In this document: in pieces, positions 20,083-45,472 of the stretch
Layout of the letters: each line of letters starts with the position of its first letter
Position numbering within the stretch: the stretch's first letter is position 1
Origin: Candidatus Kaiserbacteria bacterium
GTDB lineage: Bacteria; Patescibacteriota; Minisyncoccia; Phycocordibacterales; Phycocordibacteraceae
Direction: 5' to 3'
DNA: 45,648 bases
Assembly: GCA_016182485.1 (NCBI GenBank)
Contig: JACPGH010000005.1
Location: 130,305 to 175,952 of the forward strand
Position numbers and translations under genes: made by a program
Notes under the pieces: model-generated
What the model was told of the DNA's origin: nothing
The model's input: the letters and a program-made list of their open reading frames with translations, nothing else
Databases searched by the model: none

Positions 20083-20094
20083 TTATAGCTTTTG

Positions 20095-20178
20095 TGCCGA
20101 AGGAGGGATTTGAACCCTCAAGAGGTTGCCCTCACTGCGCCCTGAACGCAGCGCGTCTGCCAATTTCGCCACTTCGGC
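20095..20178 (-). tRNA. tRNA-Leu (anticodon CAG)
   Basis: Hand-folded: acceptor GCCGAAG/CTTCGGC, anticodon loop UUCAGGG, long variable arm, T-arm GAGGGTTCAAATCCCTC. Confidence 0.9.
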
Positions 20179-20851
20179 TCAATTCGATTATGCGCATAGA
20201 TTTTAGAATCTTCAAATGCTTTCGGCGTAGACAAGGGAGTCCGTCGCGATAATAAAGAAGCGGGCATAGTTTCAAGGCTTCTCGCTTGGAATATTTCAAT
20301 TGAAAATACAGCCGATTTCCAGACGGGTTTAGATAACCATGCACCCCGGCTTTTTCCAGAATTTCTTTCTGGAGCCAAACCAAATAAGGCCGACTTGCAG
20401 ATATAAAGGAGATATAAAAACGAAAGCTGTTCTTAAATATGGAATCATAAAAAGAATACGTGCATCCGTCCCCATCAAAATAGCCGCGGAGAAAATCGAA
20501 GAAAAATTCATCGGGAATCGAGAGCCGCGAAATCGTTTTTGATTTCGCTGGCGATAAACCGAGACCTAACAAATAGCGATAGAAAAGCACGTCACCGAAT
20601 TGAGTGTGATAAGCCACGTTGCCCGCCCCAGAATATTTTGGACTTATTTTCGAATGAAGGCCGAGGCATTTCTTAAATAATGCGACCTGTGAGCGATCTT
20701 TCGATGTAAAGTCGATATGTCGGCCATCCTTTGAAAGACAGCCATCCGACACGATTAGACCAACAGCATAGGCGAATGTCGAAGACCATTCAATATGAAT
20801 CTTACCGAGAGGTTTTCCTGACACTGTCTCTACTGTAAAATACTGAGACAT
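20132..20851 (-). CDS. LAGLIDADG family homing endonuclease (double-motif)
   Basis: Two LAGLIDADG motifs (FAYAVGLIVSDGCLS and FLRGYFDGDGC). AT-rich. The last 47 nt, including the stop codon, lie inside tRNA-Leu(CAG). Confidence 0.85.
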   Translation of the reverse strand: MSQYFTVETVSGKPLGKIHIEWSSTFAYAVGLIVSDGCLSKDGRHIDFTSKDRSQVALFKKCLGLHSKISPKYSGAGNVAYHTQFGDVLFYRYLLGLGLSPAKSKTISRLSIPDEFFFDFLRGYFDGDGCTYSFYDSIFKNSFRFYISFISASRPYLVWLQKEILEKAGVHGYLNPSGNRLYFQLKYSKREALKLCPLLYYRDGLPCLRRKHLKILKSMRIIELSRSGEIGRRAAFRAQ

Positions 20852-20918
20852 ATAGCGTATACCATATCCACATAGCTAGGTGGACATGGTTTGAAGAACC
20901 CCGTATCGTACTTATTGC

Positions 20919-20991
20919 GGGCGATTAGCTCAGTTGGTAGAGCATCGCATTTACACTGCGAGGGTCACAGGTTCGAGTCCTGTATCGCCCA
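20919..20991 (+). tRNA. tRNA-Val (anticodon UAC)
   Basis: Hand-folded: acceptor GGGCGAT/ATCGCCC, D-arm AGCTCAGTTGGTAGAGC, anticodon loop UUUACAC, T-arm ACAGGTTCGAGTCCTGT. Confidence 0.9.
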
Positions 20992-21118
20992 CAATACGAA
21001 GTGTTGTGGAGGACGAGAAAGCCGGAGGGCGACGGCCCGAGGCGGGGTCGCGGAAATTTTCAGCAGAAAATTATCCGTGACCGAGTCCTGTATCGCCCAC
21101 AATACGAAGTGTTGTGGA
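20974..21118 (+). mobile_element. Miniature insertion (71-bp core, 21011..21081) flanked by 37-bp direct repeats that duplicate the tRNA-Val 3' end
   Basis: DR cgagtcctgtatcgcccacaatacgaagtgttgtgga at 20974..21010 and 21082..21118 (identical). The core is about 80% identical by eye to the insert after rplK, including aaattttcagcagaaaattat. Confidence 0.7.
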
Positions 21119-21306
21119 ATTGCATTCGTGAATTTTCTGTGATATCTGTTAGCCATGCTTTTTGAGAATGTGCTCGTGTTGCGCGACATTATAATCTGGC
21201 GCGCCGGAGAATTCGCGATGCATTTATTTCGGGACCGGCTCGCGCAGTTGCGGGCGGTGTTCCTCTCTTAGCAACCTCACTCCACGCCTAAACGTTTGAA
21301 TGAGAT

Positions 21307-23835: not shown

Positions 23836-24810
23836 ATGAAGTACTCCCTGCTCGCAATTCTGGCAATCTTCATCGCAGGCACTCTTGGGTTTATGTACCG
23901 CCAACAAATTATGTCTCTTTTAACTAAAAATACCGCACCGGAAATCGCCGAAGTCCGCGACTTCCAATGCGAAGGGATGGAAGGGTTCACGTTCAAATAT
24001 CCAGTGTTTAAGGGGTGGAGCCAGGAAAGACGGATCGAAGTTGAGCCGGGAAAGAAATGTAAATTATTCTTTATGAATCTCGCAGACCAGCGGGGATACA
24101 TAATCGCAGTGACGTATGACCAGATAAATAATCGCAACGACGGTTCGCTTTTCCCGGCGCCGCCTCTTGTCCCGACGAAAGACGCCAGGGAAAATATAAA
24201 CGGTGTTCTGTACGATATAACCCGGCCGGATATGCAAGGGAACGCAATTTATTTTTACTATAACTTCCGCGGGGACGGATTTTATAAGAATATGGATATG
24301 ATGAGCGTTGAATCATCTGGGTTGCCAGAATATAACGACGTCTTCCGGCAACAGGTGATCGAGAGTTTTAGGATTTCTTCCAATCAGACAGTGGAAAATT
24401 TCGCCCCTAAATTCGCAGGTAATTGGAAGTGGAGGGATGAAAAGTATGTCATGTTGGAAAAAGATGATGGCACAAAGGAGTATCAAGAGGCTAGCCTATA
24501 CTTGAATATCGAAATAGATGCAAGCATTAATTTAATCGGGGAATGGACGGCAGCAATGAGAGGGGGAAATAGGGTTGACATTTGTAAGAATGAGGCTGGC
24601 GATAAGCCATGCCTCTCGGGAGTTATAACTGGCGGTGAAGTAACTATGGACTTTGAAGACGGTTACAGGGGAGGGAGGGGCCGGCTAAAATTAGTATACG
24701 ATTCACAGTCAGATACTTTGCATTGGAAGATTCTGGAAAGGCCGCAAGGAGAATTTTATTTACCTGTTGAGGCAATCCTTGAAAGAATTCCGGAGCCCTA
24801 TTATATATGA
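23836..24810 (+). CDS. Island protein P1: signal-anchored mosaic-family protein (family module plus C-terminal extension)
   Basis: MKYSLLAILAIFIAG anchor. Conserved box PEIAEVRDFQCEGMEGFTFKYPVFKGW and closing box FRQQVIESFRI. The C-terminal roughly 140 aa are homologous to the P3 C-terminus (FAGNWKW...YDSQSDTLHWKI). Confidence 0.75.
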   Translation: MKYSLLAILAIFIAGTLGFMYRQQIMSLLTKNTAPEIAEVRDFQCEGMEGFTFKYPVFKGWSQERRIEVEPGKKCKLFFMNLADQRGYIIAVTYDQINNRNDGSLFPAPPLVPTKDARENINGVLYDITRPDMQGNAIYFYYNFRGDGFYKNMDMMSVESSGLPEYNDVFRQQVIESFRISSNQTVENFAPKFAGNWKWRDEKYVMLEKDDGTKEYQEASLYLNIEIDASINLIGEWTAAMRGGNRVDICKNEAGDKPCLSGVITGGEVTMDFEDGYRGGRGRLKLVYDSQSDTLHWKILERPQGEFYLPVEAILERIPEPYYI

Positions 24811-25757
24811 AATTTGTCTTTGTGATCCTAACATTGTTATTCCTAGGCGGAATAGGTTTTTCCTTTTATATAAGCAAGATGAAAACCCAGAACTTTTCTA
24901 GAGAAATTGCAGGCATGGAGAGGAAATCTTTTTGCCTTGGGCGCTTTCTTGTGGACATTCCGGCCAATGCCAGCTTGGCAAGTCAAAGTCAAACCATTGC
25001 CAATCTTAAAGTAGAAGTTGAGAAAAATGAGCCAAAAAAGACCGTTGAAGAGATAATACAGGCAATGACCTTAGAGATTTCTAAATTACCCGCGCCGGCC
25101 GATGAAAGTGCGACAATTATTAATTCAATATCGCTTGGAGATGAGGCCTGGGGAATTGTATTTCATGATTCGACTGAAGTTCTTGAATCAATTAAGTTGC
25201 GCGGCGTTCGGCTAGTTGGAGATAAGCTATTTCGAATTACAGCAGGCGCAGAGATAGATCAGGCGGATGAACTTATACGGTTGGCAAGATCTATCGCTTC
25301 AGCGATTAGCTTATCGAAAAATCCATTACAGCCAACTTTTTGCTTACAAGAAGGTTTTTTAAATCTTCCATTTGAATATCAAGAATCCGTAGAAGCCGCG
25401 TTTGACTTTGAAGACAGTTCTAAACTAACTATCGAAACCAGGAGTATTGGCAGGGAAACCCCGGTTAGTCTGGGAGCGGAAGCGAAAGAAACTTTGGCAA
25501 ATCTAGGGGCTAATGGAGTAAAGCCTGCGTTACTGCGCTCCGGAATGAGAAAAATTGCCGATATGTCAGGAGAAGAGCTTCTAATTGAGACGGCCGACGA
25601 GAGGAGTGCTTTGTTTCAGTGGAGATTTATTGGCGATCCTAAATCCGGTGAGCGCCCTTATATACAGATAACAGTCGATGCGAACGACGTGACAAACGCT
25701 AAGAAATTGATAACGATATGGGATTTGGTCCTTGACTCTTTGCGCCGTAATTTATGA
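24807..25757 (+). CDS. Island protein P2: signal-anchored protein resembling the Tli4-type T6SS immunity family
   Basis: MKFVFVILTLLFLGG anchor, then FCLGRFLVDIPANASL, which matches my memory of the C(V/I)GR(F/Y)L(I/V)D(L/I)P signature of Tli4 N-domains. ATGA overlap with P1. Confidence 0.6.
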   Translation: MKFVFVILTLLFLGGIGFSFYISKMKTQNFSREIAGMERKSFCLGRFLVDIPANASLASQSQTIANLKVEVEKNEPKKTVEEIIQAMTLEISKLPAPADESATIINSISLGDEAWGIVFHDSTEVLESIKLRGVRLVGDKLFRITAGAEIDQADELIRLARSIASAISLSKNPLQPTFCLQEGFLNLPFEYQESVEAAFDFEDSSKLTIETRSIGRETPVSLGAEAKETLANLGANGVKPALLRSGMRKIADMSGEELLIETADERSALFQWRFIGDPKSGERPYIQITVDANDVTNAKKLITIWDLVLDSLRRNL

Positions 25758-25912
25758 AATTTCGCATCTTTACCGTAATTACCATAATTTTCATAACCGG
25801 GGGCGTGGCGTTTTTCCCGCCCGTTCGCGCCCATCATTATAGAATAATTGAACGCAAGATGCCTGTAAACCGATATAATAAAAATGATGAAAACAAATCA
25901 AATTCTGCCTAG
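25754..25912 (+). pseudogene. Recombination scar / gene remnant (52-codon ORF)
   Basis: Family-type anchor MKFRIFTVITIIFITGGVAFF fused to a 47-bp copy (25826..25872) of the P6-end/P7-start junction (29184..29230, 4 mismatches), including MPVNR. Confidence 0.55.
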
Positions 25913-25946
25913 TTCGAACGAAAAAACAAGTAAAAAATATCTAGTA

Positions 25947-26855
25947 ATGGGTTCTTTTATGACATCGGGACTCCTGCTTCTCGGCGCAATTCTGGCAATC
26001 TTCATCGCAGGCACTCTTGGGTTTATGTACCGCCAACAAATTATGTCTCTTTTAACCAAAAATACCGCACCTGAAATAGTCGAAGTCCGCGACTTCCAAT
26101 GCGACGGTATGGAAGGGTTCACCTTCAAGTACCCGGTGTTTAAGGGGTGGGAGGCGAGTGAGAAAGTGGAATGCATAGATTCTGCCTCAGCCCGGTCCAA
26201 TTTATTTGAAGTTCATATAATAAAAGGAAAAGATTGGGATTTCGAGACCTTGGAGAATCCATCGGGGATTGTATACGGCCGAGTATATTCATCAGAGGAG
26301 GAATCAGCCATTTTTTTGGGAAAAGAAAGCGACGTCATTGTAACACTTAAGAATGCGGATAATCCCGAAAAGAGTTTCTCAAAAGACCTTTTCTGGCAGC
26401 AAGTGATTGAGAGTTTCAAGATCGTTGAAGTTTCTCAAGCTGTCAAATTTGCCGGTTCATGGATGTGGAGTGAGGAGGCATGGGGGCAGGATGTAGACAA
26501 ACTGCAGCCTTTTTTAGCAAGCGAGCAATTTAGTCTGGATCTGGAGGTTACTGGCAATAATATATCGGGTTCTCATTGCTGGAGTAAATCTTATTCCGTG
26601 GGAGAAAAAACGGAAACGCAAAAAGATTGTGGCGATCAAGAAAAGATTCCCAGTATCACTGGTAAGATTAACGGTTCGACCGCGGATGTGAGTTTTTCCA
26701 GTTATACGGACGGGACAACATACTTGGCAAGATTGGAATATGATTCCGCCTCCGATTCGCTCAGGTGGCAAATTACCGGCTACCCTAAAAAAATAAGCCA
26801 ATCTGGATTTCCCGCCGAAGTCTCGCTTCGGCGGAAACTAGGAACGCCTCTCTAA
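25947..26855 (+). CDS. Island protein P3: mosaic-family paralog of P1
   Basis: Nt 25986..26150 are about 94% identical to P1 nt 23854..24018. Boxes RDFQCDGMEGFTFKYPVFKGW and FWQQVIESFKIV are present. Start uncertain (ORF opens at 25884; ATGs at 25947 and 25959). Confidence 0.7.
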   Translation: MGSFMTSGLLLLGAILAIFIAGTLGFMYRQQIMSLLTKNTAPEIVEVRDFQCDGMEGFTFKYPVFKGWEASEKVECIDSASARSNLFEVHIIKGKDWDFETLENPSGIVYGRVYSSEEESAIFLGKESDVIVTLKNADNPEKSFSKDLFWQQVIESFKIVEVSQAVKFAGSWMWSEEAWGQDVDKLQPFLASEQFSLDLEVTGNNISGSHCWSKSYSVGEKTETQKDCGDQEKIPSITGKINGSTADVSFSSYTDGTTYLARLEYDSASDSLRWQITGYPKKISQSGFPAEVSLRRKLGTPL

Positions 26856-26856
26856 T

Positions 26857-27732
26857 ATGAAATTCTACATCCTTGCAATAGCTCTGATTCTTACCGCCCT
26901 CACCTTTTTCTACCGCCTAGAAATCATGTCTATGTTCTCTAAATCTACTGAACCGGAAATAGCTGAAACCCGCGACTTCCAATGCGAAGGGATGGAAGGG
27001 TTCACCTTCAAATACCCGGTGTTTAAAGGGTGGGAGGTATCTTTAATTAGGAATATTAGCGAAGTATGGGATATAGATGTTTTTAAAAACAAGAAGGGAA
27101 TGAATTCTGGTCCGGAAAAGTGCGAAATTTTACTTAGCGGTGCCAGTTTAAACCGTCCGGAGAAAGTTAAAGAAGAATTTCAGCCCCGCATTCTTGTGCA
27201 ACAAGATCAGCCTCACGTGGCGATAAGCGAGAATCCTCACGGAATAAGATACGAAAAGCTTTCGGAGGATAAATATTTTTTCAATCTATCAAGTTACGCA
27301 GTTAACATCGAGTTATTAAACATTAACGAAAAGTACAGCTTCCCCAAAGAGATCTTTTGGCAGCAGGTGATAGAGAGTTTCAAAATTGTCGATTCGAATG
27401 AAAGGAATACTTCAATCAGGCTAGAAGATGAATTGTTGGATACTGCTTGGGTTCAGTTAGATCACGATGGGAATGAAACAGGTTTCGAAATAAATTTCCG
27501 AAAAACAAAAAACAACGATCCTTCTCATAATTTCTATGATTATCAAGATTATCTTCATCAAAGACCGGGCGTGAGCGGATACTGGAGGGTTGATGAGAGT
27601 ACCGTTACGGTTACCCCATATCCTTCAAATATGCCTCCTGTGATATATACGAACGTGATTATTGCGGGGGATATATTAAATGTGACCGATTCGCTTGATG
27701 GTGCTAAAGTTAAATTTAAGAAAATACGGTAG
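26857..27732 (+). CDS. Island protein P4: mosaic-family paralog with a distinct C-terminal extension
   Basis: MKFYILAIALILTAL anchor, PEIAETRDFQCEGMEGFTFKYPVFKGW, FWQQVIESFKIV. The core and C-terminus are unrelated to P1 by eye. Confidence 0.7.
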   Translation: MKFYILAIALILTALTFFYRLEIMSMFSKSTEPEIAETRDFQCEGMEGFTFKYPVFKGWEVSLIRNISEVWDIDVFKNKKGMNSGPEKCEILLSGASLNRPEKVKEEFQPRILVQQDQPHVAISENPHGIRYEKLSEDKYFFNLSSYAVNIELLNINEKYSFPKEIFWQQVIESFKIVDSNERNTSIRLEDELLDTAWVQLDHDGNETGFEINFRKTKNNDPSHNFYDYQDYLHQRPGVSGYWRVDESTVTVTPYPSNMPPVIYTNVIIAGDILNVTDSLDGAKVKFKKIR

Positions 27733-27749
27733 CGCTTAACTATATTCGA

Positions 27750-28634
27750 ATGAAATACCCTCTCCTCGCAATTCTGATAATCCTAATCCTTGGCGGCGTT
27801 GTCTTTTTCTATCAAGGGAAGTTCATGCCTTCCTTTTCGAGTGAATCGCATGTCGTTTCTCAAGTTGTATTTGGGGAAGAAGCAAGAAAGTCATTTACAT
27901 ACAAGGGTATGCAAATTCATCCTTTTTGCCTGGACTTCATGAGGAATGGAAATGAGTCCGGTATCAATGATAAAGAGTTCCAAATCAATCTAGATGTATG
28001 TTCAGCGACTACGAGCCTCGTTGAGGAAAATCAAGGCAGTCTGCATGCCGAGTATCCGCCGTCTGAGGGATTATTCGGAGGAGATTCAAATTATAAAGTC
28101 TTGGCCCAAAAGGAAAGAGAATTTTTGGTGAAGATGACCACAAACGGAGGTGGAACCGGATTTTTTGATAGTATCGGATGGGTAAGCGTGGAGGGAAATG
28201 AAATTCGCATGAGAAGAGAAGTTGGAGTAGGTGATCGGTGTAACGGAGGATTTACGGAAAACGTCAATTCGGAGACCGGGAACTTGGAAATCAGCGTGAA
28301 TGTTACCCCTGCGGATATTATTGAACTAGCCGCTAGCAGTACAATCAAGGCGTATGAGGACTTAGAGGCGAGCGCGAATAGCTGTTTTGGAACTGCTAAT
28401 TATTTATATAATATCAAGGATGAAGAATTAACATTCGATTTCGTTGACCTGGGATCAGGAGAAGGTATGCCTCAAATAGCCGACGAAAATTCAGCATGGA
28501 CTAATGGATACGCGTATCAGCCTTGTTTCAATAGATTGTTCAACTCTTACATTTCATCCGGAAAAACCAATTTTAAGATTGAGGAGCTGCGTGAGTTTGG
28601 AGAGAAATTTTTATCAACTTGCGTGAAAGAATAA
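27750..28634 (+). CDS. Island protein P5: signal-anchored hypothetical protein (different ectodomain)
   Basis: MKYPLLAILIILILGG anchor. Cys-containing ectodomain (..GGGTGFFDSIGW..GDRCNGGF..). No family recognised. Confidence 0.6.
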   Translation: MKYPLLAILIILILGGVVFFYQGKFMPSFSSESHVVSQVVFGEEARKSFTYKGMQIHPFCLDFMRNGNESGINDKEFQINLDVCSATTSLVEENQGSLHAEYPPSEGLFGGDSNYKVLAQKEREFLVKMTTNGGGTGFFDSIGWVSVEGNEIRMRREVGVGDRCNGGFTENVNSETGNLEISVNVTPADIIELAASSTIKAYEDLEASANSCFGTANYLYNIKDEELTFDFVDLGSGEGMPQIADENSAWTNGYAYQPCFNRLFNSYISSGKTNFKIEELREFGEKFLSTCVKE

Positions 28635-28635
28635 G

Positions 28636-29205
28636 ATGAAATATTTTATTTTATTTGTCGTGATCATGCTTGGCGGTACAGCTTATTTCTATCGCCAAGA
28701 AATTATGAATATGTTTTCAAAAACCGAGCCTCAAATTCTCGAAACCCGCGACTTCGAGTGCGACGGCATGGAAGGGTTCACGTTCAAATACCCGGTATTC
28801 AGAGGGTGGACCTTTGAAGATCCTAGAGCAGCCGCGGATGGAACTTGTTACATTGATATTAGAAGCAATGATGAGCCGTTTTCCGCCCTTGTAAGATATA
28901 TAAAAATCAGTGCTCAAATTATGCGCAACAGCGCGGACACTAATATAAGTATATCTCCGCCATTCATTCCAACGGATAATGCCAAACTCAATCCGCAAAA
29001 AGTTATATATGACAGAGGAAGAAGCGATACAGAAAATGGGACTACCTCTACATATTTTTATGACGGCTCGGAAGGAGATATTTTTATGGTTACAATTGAG
29101 CTTTTAGCCCATGGAAACTTCCCTGAAGACACGTTTTGGCAGGAAGTGATCGAAAGTTTTAAATTAATTAGCGATAAGAAGGGCGCGCCCATCATTATGG
29201 AATAA
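28636..29205 (+). CDS. Island protein P6: minimal mosaic-family member (family module only)
   Basis: MKYFILFVVIMLGG anchor, ETRDFECDGMEGFTFKYPVFRGW, FWQEVIESFKLI. Its core aligns with the P1 core (PPF/LxPT..A...V.YD..R.D). Confidence 0.7.
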   Translation: MKYFILFVVIMLGGTAYFYRQEIMNMFSKTEPQILETRDFECDGMEGFTFKYPVFRGWTFEDPRAAADGTCYIDIRSNDEPFSALVRYIKISAQIMRNSADTNISISPPFIPTDNAKLNPQKVIYDRGRSDTENGTTSTYFYDGSEGDIFMVTIELLAHGNFPEDTFWQEVIESFKLISDKKGAPIIME

Positions 29206-31845: not shown

Positions 31846-32514
31846 ATGGGTAAACGTGGGCCGAAGCCAAAAAGGGGGGAAGTGGTATGGTCACCGGAGC
31901 TGGCATATGCAGTTGGACTTATTGCAACGGACGGCAGTCTTTCTAAAACAGGGCGCCATATCAATCTTACGTCGAAGGATCGTTCTCAATTAAAGACGTT
32001 TTTGAGGTGTATTGATAGAGAAAAAGTACGCATTACTAAAAAACGAGGTTTTTATCGCAAATGGATTACTCATGTTCAAGTAGGCGATGTTGTTCTCTAC
32101 CGTTTTTTGCTCTCAATCGGGCTCGCACCGAACAAAACAAAAACAATCGGAATTCTTGATGTTCCAGATAGATATATTTTTGATTTCTTACGCGGACACC
32201 ACGATGGAGACGGGTGTTTTTATAGTTATTTTGATCCGCGATGGAAGAAGAGCTTCGTATTTTATCTAGTGTTTGTTTCCGCCAGTGCGAACCATATATA
32301 CTGGATACGCCAATTATTAGAGCGATTGCTCGGCGTAAGAGGGCACATTACAACTGCGAAAAGCAATTGCGTTCTCCAGTTAAAATATGGGAAACGAGAA
32401 GCGCTTCAGATTCTTAAGAAGTTATATGCTGATTCTAAAGCGCCTTGTCTTGCTAGAAAGAGATTGAAAATAGAGCGCGCATTACGTATAGTAGGAGAAT
32501 CGTTACCAAACTGA
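31846..32514 (+). CDS. LAGLIDADG family homing endonuclease (paralog of 20132..20851)
   Basis: LAYAVGLIATDGSLS and FLRGHHDGDGC motifs. Alignable along its full length with the other copy. AT-rich. TATACT lies 6 nt upstream of the ATG. Confidence 0.85.
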   Translation: MGKRGPKPKRGEVVWSPELAYAVGLIATDGSLSKTGRHINLTSKDRSQLKTFLRCIDREKVRITKKRGFYRKWITHVQVGDVVLYRFLLSIGLAPNKTKTIGILDVPDRYIFDFLRGHHDGDGCFYSYFDPRWKKSFVFYLVFVSASANHIYWIRQLLERLLGVRGHITTAKSNCVLQLKYGKREALQILKKLYADSKAPCLARKRLKIERALRIVGESLPN

Positions 32515-32533: not shown

Positions 32534-32617
32534 GCCCGGGTGTTGAAATCGGTAGACATTACGCCTTGAGGTGGCGTAGCCCGAAAGGGCGTGGAGGTTC
32601 GAGTCCTCTCCCGGGCA
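32534..32617 (+). tRNA. tRNA-Leu (anticodon GAG)
   Basis: Hand-folded: acceptor GCCCGGG/CCCGGGC, anticodon loop UUGAGGU, long variable arm, T-arm GGAGGTTCGAGTCCTCT. Confidence 0.9.
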
Positions 32618-32618
32618 C

Positions 32619-36577: not shown

Positions 36578-36997
36578 ATGGCTACGGTGGTAAAAAAGAT
36601 AAAGCTTCAGATTCCCGGCGGCGCGGCGACGCCCGCGCCTCCCGTCGGCACGGCGCTCGGCCCGGCCGGCGTGAACATCGGCCAGTTCGTAACGCAGTTC
36701 AATGAAGCGACCAAGGACAAGCGCGGGACGATCATTCCGATAGAGCTTTCCGTCTATGACGACCGCTCCTTCACTTTCATAATGAAGAATCCGCCGGCCT
36801 CGCGCCTGATCCTCAAAGCGCTTGGAATCGAAAAAGGCTCAGGCAAGGCGAAGGAATCAAAAGTCGGAACGCTCACCAAGGCGCAGGTCGCGACTATTGT
36901 CGAAGAGAAGATGCCGGACCTCTCGGCGAATGATAAGGAAGCAGCTGCGCGCACGATAGCCGGCACGGCCAGGAGCATGGGGGTCGATGTGAAATAA
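36578..36997 (+). CDS. rplK: 50S ribosomal protein L11
   Basis: [34 protein letters not shown]... canonical uL11. Confidence 0.95.
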
Positions 36998-37084
36998 AAC
37001 ATCGACCAGCCGCAGGCCGACGGGCCGAGGCGGGCCCGCGCAAATTTTCAGCAGAAAATTATGCGTGGGTCGATGTGAAATAAA
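36981..37084 (+). mobile_element. Second copy of the miniature insertion (68-bp core, 36999..37066) flanked by 18-bp direct repeats that duplicate the rplK 3' end
   Basis: DR gggtcgatgtgaaataaa at 36981..36998 (includes the rplK stop) and 37067..37084. The core shares ggccgaggcggg..cgcg.aaattttcagcagaaaattat.cgtg with the tRNA-Val copy. Confidence 0.7.
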
Positions 37085-37187
37085 TTTCATAAGTTTTCAA
37101 CTTGTCCGCCGCGCGCGCCGCGGGTAGAGTATCAAAGGACCTGATGCTCATTTCGAGCGCACTAGACCTTTCAAGAAAGGATGACCC

Positions 37188-37553
37188 GTGGGATCGAAAT
37201 TGGCCATTTCACGCAGTGAGTTTGATCGCGCCGTCATGCGCGGCGAATTCAGTACCGAGGCGGAGGGCGCGGAGCGGCAGGCCGGAGCGGTCCTCGTGCA
37301 GCACGGGGTCGTACTCCTTGCTGCCAATGCCAGCCACCCGATCGGAGAAGTCATTAACTCGATCCTGCATCGGCCGGGATTCGAGATTCAAGAATGCGAT
37401 CTATACGCGAGAGTCTTTCCGTGCTGCCGACTGTGCGCCGAACTGGTGAGGGCGGCTTCTCCGCGGCGCGTCTTTTTTGCGCATGGAATCGCCACAGAGG
37501 CCCAGATGCACGAGTTCGAAGCGCATGGCGTGGAGCTCATCCGCGTCGAGTAG
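37188..37553 (+). CDS. Degenerate cytidine/dCMP-deaminase-fold protein (lacks the HAE motif)
   Basis: Aligns with the C-terminal half of 39008..39850 (SRSEFDR..M, VFPCCRLC vs FPCPPC, VELIRVE vs VEIVRVE), but has GEV in place of HAE and a roughly 25-aa deletion. GTG start. Confidence 0.55.
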   Translation: MGSKLAISRSEFDRAVMRGEFSTEAEGAERQAGAVLVQHGVVLLAANASHPIGEVINSILHRPGFEIQECDLYARVFPCCRLCAELVRAASPRRVFFAHGIATEAQMHEFEAHGVELIRVE

Positions 37554-37637
37554 CGCCCATTTACCTCAGCCCCTGGCCGCCATGCGGTCGGGGGCTGCAC
37601 ATTTTAATGGATCTTTGCCATACGGATAAAAACAGCG

Positions 37638-37661
37638 GCGGCGTCCCGAGAGGGACGCCGC
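37638..37661 (-). terminator. Intrinsic terminator of folA
   Basis: 10-bp stem gcggcgtccc / gggacgccgc, loop gaga. On the minus strand it is followed by cgctgttttta. Confidence 0.65.
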
Positions 37662-37667
37662 GTGCGT

Positions 37668-38213
37668 TCACATCCATTCGTAAGTCCAGAACGACGATTC
37701 GTACTCATCCTTTTCATGCTGTCGGCTGCGGAGCACTCCGTCTGCGAGGCGCCACTTATTCGCTTCGCGTACGAACTGCGGGAAGAAGGCATCGCCCGCC
37801 AGTCCCTGTGCGTGCACGATCGTGCGGTACACCTTCCGCACTAGACCGGCGGAGATGAACATCTCGTAGATCTCTGCGCCGCCGATTACACACGCGCGCC
37901 CACCGAGTACCCCGATTGTTGCAAGAACTTCTTCGAGGGACGTTGCGTACCACACCTGCCCCTGATGGCTCGTGAACAGCGCAGGGTTCGTCGTAAGCAC
38001 CACATGCTGGCGACCGGACAGCGGTTTGCCGTTGCGGGCGAGAATCGAGTCGAATGTCTTGCGGCCCATAACGACAACGCCTATCTCCGTCGTTATCTTC
38101 TTGAATCGAGCGAGATCGCTCGGCATCCGCCACGGCAGACGGCCCTTCAGTCCTATGACGCGCTCGGGCGTCATGGCGACGATGAGTGAAAGATCAATGT
38201 CCGCGTGGTCCAT
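37668..38213 (-). CDS. folA: Dihydrofolate reductase
   Basis: LSLIVAMTPERVIGLKGRLPWRMPSDLARFKKIT...VVMGRKTF.S...GRQHVVLT...GGAEIY matches DHFR. Start at MDHADID (SD aaaggag). Confidence 0.85.
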   Translation of the reverse strand: MDHADIDLSLIVAMTPERVIGLKGRLPWRMPSDLARFKKITTEIGVVVMGRKTFDSILARNGKPLSGRQHVVLTTNPALFTSHQGQVWYATSLEEVLATIGVLGGRACVIGGAEIYEMFISAGLVRKVYRTIVHAQGLAGDAFFPQFVREANKWRLADGVLRSRQHEKDEYESSFWTYEWM

Positions 38214-43128: not shown

Positions 43129-44736
43129 ATGGAGGAGCGGATACGGAAGGCGGTCGGCAGCGATGCGACTATACGGCGCCCACTGCCGGCGTTCGGCGAT
43201 TATTCGGTATACGGAGGCGAGCGGGCGAAAGAAATAGCCGGCGCGATCCGGGAGAAGCTCGGTAACGCGGTCCAAAAGGTCGAGATAGTGAAGGGATTCG
43301 TGAACATTACTCTCGCGCCCGAAGCGGTCGCGTTCGCAGTGGCCGAGGCGGACGCGCAGGATACCGAGTGGGGGAAGTTCGATGTGAATGCGGGAAAGAA
43401 AATCAGCGTTGAATACGGCAATCCGAACCCGTTCAAGGAAATACATATAGGGCACCTGATGAGCAATATCATCGGCGAGTCCGTGTCGCGTCTTATCGAG
43501 GCATCGGGTGCGGTCGTCGTGCGCGATACCTTCGGTGGCGATGTCGGCCCGCACGTGGCCAAGGCGCTATGGGCGCTTCGAAAGGACAAAGTTGCTGAGA
43601 TTACTAATGTCAAACAAATTGGAGAAGCGTACGCCCGCGGCTCGAACGTATATTCTGAAGATGAAACGGCGAAGCAAGAAATCGATACGTTGAATGCGAG
43701 GATCTACGAACTTGTGGCGCATCCGGAAAAGGCAGAGACCGAAGAGGAAAGAGCGCTCCTCAAACTTTGGCAGCACGGCCGAGAGATTTCCATGGAAGAG
43801 TTTCGGCGGATTTTCGCCAAGCTCGGCACGAGATTTGACTACGAATTCTTCGACAGCGATACGACCGAACCAGGCCTTCGCGTCGTGCGCGACGGCCTCG
43901 CGAAAGGAATTTTTGAGGAAAGCGACGGTGCGATCATTTATCGCGGTGAGAAAAAGGGTCTGCACACGCTCGTGTTCATCACTGGCCGCGGCACGCCTAC
44001 GTATGAGACAAAAGATATCGGCCTCGCCTTCATCAAAGAGGAAAGGATTCCCTCGGACGAGGCGATCATCGTTACGGGCGCGGAGCAGAAAGGGCATTTT
44101 GCCGTATTTCTCGCGGCACTTTCTGAAATTGCCCCGCGCGTTGCCGAAAAAACAAAGCATGTCGCGCATGGTCTATTGAGTCTGACTTCAGGAAAAATGT
44201 CTTCCCGGCTCGGCAATGTCATTACGGCAACCGGCCTCATTGAAGATGTCATCGCGAAAGCGAGCGAGAAGAATCCCGATCCCTTGATCGCCGAGCAAGT
44301 GGCGGTCGGCGCGATCAAATACATGGTGCTGCGGCAGGCGCCGGGCTCGGACATTATTTTTGACGCGGAGAAATCGCTCTCGCTCGAAGGGGATTCGGGT
44401 CCTTATCTGCAGTATGCGCTCGTGCGGGCGAAGAAGATTCTTGCATACGGCGAGAATGGCGAAGGAGGCACCGACAAGCCGCCAGCGCCGTATGCGATCG
44501 AGCGGCTCATCGTGCATTATCCGGAGGTGGTCGCTCGCGCCGCACACTCGCTCGCCCCCAACCTGCTCGTCAATTATTTAACGGAATTGGCTTCCGCCTG
44601 GAATGCGTTTTACGCGACCGAACAAGTACTCGGGAGCCCCGAAGAAGCTTATAAGCAGCGCGTTACCCGCGCCTTCGCGCACACCATGACGAACGGCCTG
44701 CATCTGCTCGGCATTCCTACCCCGTCAAAAATGTAA
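43129..44736 (+). CDS. argS: Arginine--tRNA ligase
   Basis: NPNPFKEIHIGHLMSNIIG (HIGH), GKMSSRLGN (KMSK-like), and a DALR-type C-terminal anticodon-binding domain. Confidence 0.9.
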   Translation: MEERIRKAVGSDATIRRPLPAFGDYSVYGGERAKEIAGAIREKLGNAVQKVEIVKGFVNITLAPEAVAFAVAEADAQDTEWGKFDVNAGKKISVEYGNPNPFKEIHIGHLMSNIIGESVSRLIEASGAVVVRDTFGGDVGPHVAKALWALRKDKVAEITNVKQIGEAYARGSNVYSEDETAKQEIDTLNARIYELVAHPEKAETEEERALLKLWQHGREISMEEFRRIFAKLGTRFDYEFFDSDTTEPGLRVVRDGLAKGIFEESDGAIIYRGEKKGLHTLVFITGRGTPTYETKDIGLAFIKEERIPSDEAIIVTGAEQKGHFAVFLAALSEIAPRVAEKTKHVAHGLLSLTSGKMSSRLGNVITATGLIEDVIAKASEKNPDPLIAEQVAVGAIKYMVLRQAPGSDIIFDAEKSLSLEGDSGPYLQYALVRAKKILAYGENGEGGTDKPPAPYAIERLIVHYPEVVARAAHSLAPNLLVNYLTELASAWNAFYATEQVLGSPEEAYKQRVTRAFAHTMTNGLHLLGIPTPSKM

Positions 44737-44762
44737 TTTGTGACGGGGCCCGCGCCGGATAA
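44706..44762 (+). repeat. Left 57-bp direct repeat (argS 3' end plus hairpin)
   Basis: gctcggcattcctaccccgtcaaaaatgtaatttgtgacggggcccgcgccggataa is repeated at 45416..45472 with one mismatch. It contains an 8-bp hairpin, ccccgtca/tgacgggg, around the argS stop codon. Confidence 0.85.
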
Positions 44763-45415: not shown

Positions 45416-45472
45416 GCTCGGCATTCCTACCCCGTCAAAAATGTAATTTGTGACGGGGCCTGCGCCGGATAA
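45416..45472 (+). repeat. Right 57-bp direct repeat (orphan copy of the argS 3' end)
   Basis: Copy of 44706..44762 with one C-to-T difference. Not preceded by argS coding sequence. Confidence 0.85.

Follow-up and report, generated by a model that had tools for sequence, protein, structure and literature searches.

Two small inserts, one behind a tRNA-Val gene and one behind rplK, lie in the window (the whole 45,648-nt stretch of DNA that was analysed) and belong to a family of folded non-coding elements of about 60-130 bases that extends across Patescibacteria (CPR). The family is apparently undescribed: no description of it was found in the literature searched, and we found no known family whose defining features the element displays. 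Its core, E, occupies a fixed insertion point close to the 3' end of highly conserved genes, within their final 18-40 nt; in tRNA genes this point falls between T-loop positions 55 and 56. The host gene is left intact, since the stretch that runs from this point to the gene end exists in two copies, S and S2. Judging from the sequences, we tentatively favour the reading that the two window copies, A (tRNA-Val) and B (rplK), are members of a CPR-wide class of small non-coding, non-autonomous insertion elements which would be copied 3'-end-first, the flanking repeat being the putative target duplication.

Both direct repeats and both inserts proposed in the initial annotation were found when the window sequence was re-read, and the claim of small non-coding insertions is supported (Table 1). 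In copy A, a 37-mer (CGAGTCCTGTATCGCCCACAATACGAAGTGTTGTGGA) that is 100% identical in its two occurrences encloses an insert of 71 nt (21011-21081). This repeat comprises the last 19 nt of tRNA-Val, from T-loop C56 to the 3' end, and 18 nt of trailer with a small hairpin (CCACAA..TTGTGG). In copy B, an exact 18-mer (GGGTCGATGTGAAATAAA) encloses an insert of 68 nt (36999-37066). The shared core has the same orientation in both copies, as had been claimed, and is 88% identical between them (21020-21079 versus 37008-37067). The 21-mer AAATTTTCAGCAGAAAATTAT is found at exactly two places in the window, with 0 occurrences expected, and a covariance model detected only these two copies there, at 93.9 bits (A) and 88.9 bits (B). 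An assembly artefact is excluded, given that copy B and its second repeat are also present on an independent Logan contig; three Logan unitigs break inside the second repeat of copy A, which is the behaviour expected of a real 37-bp repeat. The same architecture appears in well over 100 independent assemblies, and the possibility that the core is unique to these two loci is excluded as well.

Table 1. Coordinates of the two element copies and their host genes in the window
Feature	Positions	Strand	Evidence
tRNA-Val(TAC), intact host gene of copy A	20919..20992	+	ARAGORN; Rfam tRNA 75 bits
S of A, repeat copy 1	20974..21010	+	exact 37-nt direct repeat
AS of A, GGACGAGAA	21011..21019	+	family-conserved 5' segment GGNUGAGAA
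H1 of A	21021..21043	+	model R1 positions 1-23; both H1 helices covary
H2 of A	21046..21082	+	model R1 positions 26-62; fold; pair counts
S2 of A, repeat copy 2	21082..21118	+	exact 37-nt repeat; Logan unitigs begin within
rplK (ribosomal protein L11), host gene of copy B	36578..36997	+	ORF; Pfam Ribosomal_L11_N/L11 on identical protein
S of B, repeat copy 1	36981..36998	+	last five codons of rplK, stop codon, 1 nt
AS of B, ACATCGACC	36999..37007	+	perfect 9-nt complement of GGTCGATGT in both S and S2; fold
H1 of B	37009..37031	+	model R1; inner stem GGCC/GGCC, a compensatory change relative to A
H2 of B	37034..37070	+	model R1; fold
S2 of B, repeat copy 2	37067..37084	+	exact repeat; also on independent contig L003

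The structure of the core was assessed by folding and by covariation. Both inserts fold into a 62-nt module of two hairpins (E = H1 + H2). H1 comprises an outer stem of 3 bp and an inner stem of 4-5 bp capped by a 4-nt loop, the two stems being separated by an internal loop with GGA on its 5' side and GA on its 3' side; in copy A the outer stem is GCC/GGC, the internal loop GGA/GA, the inner stem GGGC/GCCC and the loop GACG. H2 is a 16-bp hairpin with an apex of the CAGCAG type; an A is bulged out seven pairs below its loop, and its lower stem includes a G.U pair. Copy A reads GGGGTCGCGGAAATTTTC-AGCA-GAAAATT(A)TCCGTGACC here, with the conserved G.U pair and the bulged A, and the final base of its H2 is at the same time the first base of S2. 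The lower stem of H2 in copy B (GGCCCGCGC/GCGTGGGTC) is adapted to pairing with the first bases of S2. For covariation, 35 distinct 62-nt copies were compared with a null of 500 shuffles and with slid registers. Paired cells amounted to 97.3% in the 35 copies and to 85.7% in the shuffles, both sides had changed at 9 of the 23 pairs, and the observed pairing values were reached in none of the 500 shuffles. When the registers were slid by 1-3 columns, pairing collapsed to 33-49%. The outer stem of H1 alternates between GCC/GGC, GGC/GCC, GAC/GTC and ACC/GGT, and the pair G30:U58 is G.U in 34 of the 35 sequences. The AT-rich top of H2 is invariant in this set because it was imposed by the search pattern; copies found with the covariance model that have other H2 tops (e.g., GAATTTGCCAGCAGGCAAATA and GCGAATCCAGTAGGATTCGA) retain the pairing, the loop and the bulged A. 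The conserved G.U pair points to the host-sense strand as the one that folds, either as RNA or as single-stranded DNA. Collectively, the aligned copies show that E is a conserved folded module and that the host-sense strand is the one that folds.

The initial annotation had called the GC-rich hairpin followed by AAATTTT terminator-like. This part of the interpretation is not upheld, and an intrinsic terminator was rejected as the identity of the element: neither element contains a terminator-like site on the + strand, H1 is directly followed by GGGGTCGCGG and not by a T run, and canonical terminators are often located elsewhere, behind S2 or within the trailer. No promoter was found inside either window element. 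In a search of the whole window with Rfam 15 at gathering thresholds, only tRNAs were returned; nothing relevant was obtained on 20850-21250 with E-values up to 10, and on 18 family loci the hits were rRNA, tRNA and one group I intron elsewhere, with nothing at the element. Given the lack of an Rfam match, the hammerhead, twister, pistol, hatchet, HDV-like, group II domain V and tRNA-like families are unsupported.

Around the core, the general layout is a host gene ending in S, an optional trailer that sometimes has its own terminator hairpin, AS, H1, H2 and S2, in which S2 is a direct copy of S and AS an imperfect antisense copy of it. What the initial annotation had missed is that each insert opens with 9 nt complementary to the beginning of the repeat. 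The AS of copy A pairs with the T-loop region TTCGAGTCC save for one tandem G.A/A.G, and the family 5' segment pairs with the T-loop sequence TTCGANTCC, the tandem G.A/A.G again excepted; the segment of copy A is found again in L085, L097, L113, L091, L049 and other loci. At other tRNA copies, AS reaches up to about 20 nt and spans the whole 3' part of the tRNA (20/23 in L065 and 16/19 in L074). An origin of AS as a tRNA minihelix (sense 5' acceptor plus T-stem) was rejected for L065, where AS matches the antisense and not the sense strand, and a tmRNA or a tRNA intron in the T-loop was rejected since all the tRNA cases have an intact tRNA upstream. Being complementary to both S and S2, AS could form either an S:AS hairpin at the gene end or an AS:S2 helix that closes a three-way junction with H1 and H2. 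In protein-gene hosts, including rplK of copy B, the stop codon sits in the loop of the S:AS hairpin. Pairing between AS and S2 was scored against shuffles, the flanks of other loci being a poor control since T-loop flanks are common to loci, and had z < -2 in 22 of 66 copies.

The boundaries of the repeats were determined in the 189 copies with enough upstream sequence among the matches listed. An exact S/S2 repeat, 12-37 nt long with a mode of 19, was present in 62 of these 189. Of the 49 tRNA repeats, 44 begin within the T-loop (C56), at a distance of 15-22 nt from the tRNA 3' end. On its right side the repeat nearly always stops with the gene, namely at the discriminator base plus 0-5 nt or the stop codon plus 0-3 nt. 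Copy A is an outlier in this respect, in that its 18-nt trailer hairpin is also duplicated. The insert ends at a precise right junction (..GTGAC|S2), while its left part can be anywhere from 9 to 66 nt long. The repeats are duplications of host gene 3' ends, unlike ordinary short transposase duplications, and the description of them as att-like agrees with where the tRNA repeats begin and usually finish.

Some copies depart from this layout. An H0 subtype has no AS beside H1 and contains an additional 5' hairpin, H0 (GGGTGAGA-hairpin-GCAAGG); AS is replaced by A', which repeats in sense orientation the 12-26 nt to the left of the insertion point, so that the element sits inside a partial duplicate of the gene end. 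Examples adjoin pilB (L043 and L110), tRNA genes (L075 and L094) and 5S rDNA (L063 and L028). The rplK copies of different genomes have a common GGGCCC..GGGT base of H2, and in older rplK copies (L025, L046 and L088) AS is still perfectly complementary to S and S2 has decayed. At L037, L119, L027 and L043, S2 differs from the S of the host gene, as if it came from another allele.

The initial annotation had described a family of two members. After de-duplication and removal of an unrelated Rickettsiales repeat, at least 207 distinct copies were obtained, nearly all from Patescibacteria. A genome scan with the pattern CGNAAATTTTCNNNNGAAAATTATNCG returned at least 119 loci, at least 84 of them CPR-type once the Rickettsiales repeat loci were dropped; the matches in one Rickettsiales MAG are an unrelated AT-rich repeat and were excluded as members. 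A metagenome scan with the pattern CGNAAATTTTCNNNNGAAAATTATNCG plus TG returned at least 120 loci. There were 0 matches in 2.9 million viral contigs, and a viral origin was rejected on this ground. The named genomes among the matches listed are nearly all Patescibacteria, and the lineages include Paceibacteria/Parcubacteria, Saccharibacteria, Kaiser-, Taylor-, Zambryski- and Nomurabacteria. A same-strand tRNA gene lies just upstream of 94 of the 189 copies among the matches listed, with 17 isotypes represented. The protein-gene hosts are rplK (in many lineages), rplL and a gene for a PilB/GspE-type ATPase, and another group adjoins 5S rDNA at the ends of rRNA operons, the 5S-linked copies being antisense to 5S. 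Within the window, one of nine tRNA genes has a copy.

Proteins that might move the element were sought in its neighbourhood. No integrase, recombinase, transposase or reverse transcriptase was detected among the 46 window ORFs scanned, in agreement with the view that the insert comes without a recombinase. Homologues of LAGLIDADG endonucleases occurred in just 7 of about 220 loci, and such an enzyme was rejected as the partner. No distant repeat partner that would define a larger element was found in any 8-kb locus, and a larger ORF-carrying element between distant repeats was rejected. The element is non-autonomous.

A comparison of near-identical genomes shows that copies are gained, lost or exchanged. 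The empty site, L015, has the order tRNA-Arg, tRNA-Leu, 'cc', tRNA-Val. The filled site, made up of two contig ends of one MAG (L074 and L067) with flanks near-identical to those of L015, has about 134 nt extra between tRNA-Leu and the 'cc' that leads on to tRNA-Val; these comprise a trailer hairpin, AS, H1, H2 and an S2 that repeats 19 nt exactly. AS and the trailer therefore come with the insert, and the repeat accompanies insertion; the alternative that the repeats are ancestral tandem sequence is excluded by this pair. The tRNA-Val elements of this genome pair differ from each other in one compensatory pair and one loop base, within sequence that is otherwise almost identical. The 71-nt insert of copy A in the window is identical to that of L067, and the anticodon stem of the tRNA and the trailer differ. 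Moreover, an identical H2 27-mer is shared across distant CPR classes although the stem is free to covary, which suggests recent spread.

Multiple and incomplete copies were also observed. Head-to-tail arrays are present at L114, L032, L092 and L108, and tandem or clustered copies at L107 and L064. H2-only copies lie exactly at the 3' junction of another element at L032 and L106. At L055, a nested H2-only copy has its own 12-nt duplication, which does not end at a gene end; this 5'-truncated copy fits copying from the 3' end better than site-specific integration. Truncation within H1 or down to H2 only was seen at L037, L174, L234, L150 and L201, with the proviso that every search required H2, so that the evidence for 5' truncation is biased and 3'-truncated copies are uncountable.

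Under the favoured reading of 3'-end-first copying, the element, which has no promoter of its own, would be transcribed by read-through from the host gene, and a putative trans-acting enzyme would bind the invariant 3' hairpin H2. The element would then be copied into the target from its 3' end in a SINE/R2-like, target-primed reaction, a step that we purely infer: a break at the fixed left point would prime copying while the element flank pairs with the target, and a second break, located at the gene end or slightly beyond it, would generate the duplicated gene end as a long target-site duplication. Incomplete copying would leave 5'-truncated copies. Long-retained copies behind rplK, rplL and 5S may in addition have been co-opted by the host to form a 3'-end structure. 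Several observations weigh on this model. That no reverse transcriptase or other enzyme is linked to the family counts against target priming. A repeat that ends at the gene end is not predicted by a staggered cut; it is predicted by an att-type replacement gene end or by selection. AS, as an inverted copy of the target, is not a product of target-primed insertion and needs a separate explanation, and the A' of the H0 subtype (pilB, 5S and L075) is unexplained by the model. The antisense orientation of the 5S-linked copies means that co-transcription with the host gene is not universal. The orthologous retention after rplK in many lineages, together with the extreme sequence conservation, could reflect a host function instead. 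The empty/filled comparison, for its part, depends on the two contig ends of a single MAG.

The boundaries of the repeat also invite comparison with an att-type miniature integrative element, an explanation that we consider unlikely. Recombination of S with S2 would release S-trailer-AS-H1-H2 as a tiny circle or as a folded single strand. This unit would re-integrate at the same conserved gene end in other cells, bringing its own replacement gene end in the manner of tRNA-targeting genomic islands and using a recombinase in trans; the AS:S2 stem would mimic a duplex target, much as dif is imitated by the folded single-stranded attP of CTX phage. A repeat from the T-loop to the gene end, which 44 of the 49 tRNA repeats display, is reportedly the identity-block pattern that Williams described in 2002 for tRNA-integrating elements. 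The trailer and AS that travel with the insert at the filled site, the subtypes that follow the type of target (as in the rplK-specific base of H2) and the allele-like S2 copies likewise speak for integration. However, no integrase was found among the window ORFs scanned, and a single core is used at 17 or more tRNA isotypes, protein genes and 5S rDNA, which is impossible for a site specified by a protein. The circles required would be only 86-200 bp, the duplication of the nested L055 copy is not at a gene end, and the exact repeat of copy A runs a further 18 nt into a non-conserved trailer.

A host cis-acting RNA that is not mobile is, in our estimate, likewise improbable. The element would then be a 3' module for processing, stability, termination or the sensing of a ligand or protein, with AS pairing with S or with S2 as a decoy, the H1/H2 junction binding a putative conserved CPR factor, and the duplications kept since the alternative pairings are functional. 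Covariation, the conserved nucleotides of the internal loop and bulge and the conserved G.U pair are in keeping with such a role, as are subfamilies that add peripheral hairpins in the way functional RNAs do, conservation throughout CPR with orthologous retention after rplK, rplL and 5S, the stop codon in the S:AS loop of protein-gene hosts, and an AS that stays perfect to S while S2 decays in the older rplK copies. Against this stand the presence or absence of copies in near-identical genomes, the tandem, nested and truncated copies, the occurrence at only one of the nine tRNA genes in the window, the unrelated host genes with antisense copies at 5S, and the identical 27-mer with its suggestion of recent spread; moreover, a resident RNA gives no account of how loci gained sense and antisense copies of their own gene end. 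By analogy with RNA-guided systems, E might also be the scaffold of a guide RNA, with AS and S2 pairing with both target strands and directing a putative RNA-guided recombinase or nuclease to the gene end, as in IS110 bridge RNAs, TIGR-Tas tandem guides or IS605 omega-RNAs with the flank as guide. We judge this to be very unlikely. Directly behind the constant scaffold there is indeed locus-specific sequence that is the same as that of the adjoining target, each of the two segments AS and S2 is complementary to a different strand of the target, and RNA-guided systems that address both strands, TIGR-Tas among them, are present in CPR and their phages (PMC12045711). Yet the associated protein gene was not found, the copies are solitary and not arranged in arrays beside a Tas or IS110 gene, and AS and S2 overlap fully, whereas the guides of tigRNAs and bridge RNAs target adjacent, non-overlapping segments. 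The H0 subtype does without AS, and a nuclease aimed at the essential neighbouring gene would be lethal. These models are partly compatible and not fully exclusive.

The element was further compared with known systems. Islands and prophages that target tRNA genes through tyrosine-integrase att sites of the T-loop class have the same direct repeat from T-loop to 3' end, likewise leave the gene intact with part of its 3' end copied beyond the insert, and also use protein-gene 3' ends. In contrast to them, the element has an insert of 60-130 nt without an integrase, uses one core at 17 tRNA isotypes, rplK, rplL, pilB and 5S rDNA, and has an antisense target copy in addition to truncated, nested and tandem copies. 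With SINEs and R2-type non-LTR elements it shares the non-coding structure, head-to-tail arrays and conserved RNA-gene targets, and it may share a conserved 3' hairpin at a precise 3' junction combined with variable long target duplications (here 12-37-nt repeats) and 5'-truncated copies, 3'-truncated copies being uncountable as noted above; a reliance on host transcription and a trans-acting enzyme would be a further likeness. It differs from them in the absence of an A-rich or simple-repeat tail, in that no reverse transcriptase or endonuclease was identified, in a duplication that ends at the gene end and in the inverted target copy AS. SINE or R2-type elements are not known from bacteria.

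Bacterial miniature repeats (MITEs, Correia, RUP, BOX, ERIC and REP/REPIN) are similarly small, non-coding, multi-copy, hairpin-forming and intergenic, are frequently positioned at gene 3' ends and move in trans, whereas the duplication of the present element is 12-37 nt of the host gene end, not short and fixed, and its conservation extends over a superphylum, not one genus. A MITE was rejected since there are no constant terminal inverted repeats (GGACGAG../..CCGTGAC in A and ACATCGACC../..TATGCGT in B), the only inverted pairing at the inserts being that of the locus-specific AS with the host-derived S and S2, and since the exact repeats, with their mode of 19 nt, are not a short fixed duplication of 2-10 bp. 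Relics of IS200/IS605 elements (PATEs) and omega/reRNAs have the same strand-specific hairpin ends and a precise right end followed by a target-copy flank. IS200/IS605 elements insert behind a fixed motif of 4-5 nt and do not duplicate their target, and the element is unlike them in both; neither a TnpA/TnpB gene nor a matching left-end hairpin was found for it, and a PATE or omega-RNA was rejected on the long duplications and the varying left flanks (GGTT, GGGTG, ATGG and GGAGG). IS110 bridge RNAs and TIGR-Tas systems also combine a scaffold with two segments that address both strands of a DNA target. Their guides are 4-12 nt, non-overlapping, and located in internal loops or in arrays beside a protein gene, while the segments of the element are mutually complementary, up to about 20 nt long, and part of solitary copies. 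A TIGR array was rejected because its alternating 8-12-nt repeats, 9-nt spacers and Nop-domain Tas gene are all absent at the 62-nt module. The folded attP of CTX phage and the attC sites of integrons resemble the element in being a one-strand hairpin with extrahelical bases whose stem reproduces a duplex target, and differ from it in that the element lacks Xer/dif or IntI core-site motifs, has many targets and comes with no cassette or phage genome. A diversity-generating retroelement (DGR, with VR/TR repeats) was rejected as well, since the repeats are exact or differ at non-adenines (L043 and L110) and no reverse transcriptase is present in the window. On the whole, the initial interpretation, namely a small insert bounded by att-like duplicates of gene 3' ends, is partly supported.

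CPR bacteria have tiny genomes and are thought to be poor in mobile elements. It is possible, if doubtful, that the family is a bacterial counterpart of SINEs or a mobile element programmed by nucleic acid, in which a scaffold of about 60 nt would enter the 3' ends of essential genes, bring sense and antisense copies of the target with it that determine where it inserts, and regenerate the gene end, with a putative trans-acting enzyme on H2. If mobile, it would represent a new class of mobile DNA or RNA in which a long duplication restores the gene end and an inverted target copy is added, and it would imply a conserved enzyme or RNA-binding factor that may be programmable by base pairing. Should it instead be a host RNA, it would rank among the most widespread structured RNAs of bacteria that still lack an annotation. 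The family is a practical problem for the annotation and binning of CPR MAGs, because its repeats cause contigs to break, and the element could mark horizontal exchange between CPR lineages.

In copy A, the element that follows tRNA-Val(TAC), the hexamer GGTCAC in the variable-loop/T-stem region of the tRNA (20963-20968) is complementary to GTGACC at the 3' end of the element (21077-21082). This 6-nt match may be a chance occurrence, or it may let the element make an additional contact with the tRNA. A gap of 67 nt separates tRNA-Val from the first of two free-standing LAGLIDADG_3 ORFs in the window (listed below), which overlaps the 5' end of its tRNA-Leu. Homologues of these ORFs were present in seven of the loci fetched in the collection scans; in one of them, L115, the order was LAGLIDADG, tRNA-Leu and element, with the LAGLIDADG/tRNA-Leu pairing as in the window.

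Features in the window and in a fetched locus
Feature	Position	Strand	Context
About five paralogous ORFs in a run	window 23836-29205	+	DNA repeats of 56-166 nt
Free-standing LAGLIDADG_3 ORF 1	window 20132-20851	-	directly upstream of same-strand tRNA-Leu 20094-20178 (-)
Free-standing LAGLIDADG_3 ORF 2	window 31846-32514	+	directly upstream of same-strand tRNA-Leu 32534-32618 (+)
Direct repeat of 57 nt, 98% identical	window 44706-44762 and 45416-45472
Group I intron within 23S rDNA	L021 3555-3796		CPR genome

At copy B, rplA is not the next gene after rplK. The element is followed by a small ORF that resembles a deaminase gene and by a DHFR gene in convergent orientation (36997-37668). Farther along lie genes for thymidylate synthase, SHMT and a dCMP-deaminase-like protein, a folate/thymidylate cluster.

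Other repeats were also encountered. A very abundant repeat of ~110 nt (..CCGATTAAAAACCGTACGGTTTTAATCGG..CGAAAATTTTCGTACGAAAATTATTCGGAAACACTATA) in MAG CBDFKY01, labelled 'Rickettsiales', occurs in dozens of copies per genome, some of them in tandem (L004, L007, L011, L013, L014, L016, L019, L024 and other loci); it matched the pattern by chance, and was rejected as an unrelated sequence. The 57-nt direct repeat, whose first copy runs across the argS ORF end, contains a hairpin, CCCCGTCA..TGACGGGG, and has no relation to the H1/H2 family. The repeats in the paralogous ORF run start at 23853, 25985, 26868 and 28719; one ORF of the run matched Tli4 immunity-protein domains, and the run is possibly an immunity-like gene array.

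The genome of L021, with the group I intron, also carries an element, downstream of the 5S gene. A further, recurrent host end, ..TCTGAGAAGCGGCTCA.., was duplicated by elements (L156, L183, L208, L213 and L245). ARAGORN called no tRNA at this end, which may belong to another stable RNA gene that serves as a target.
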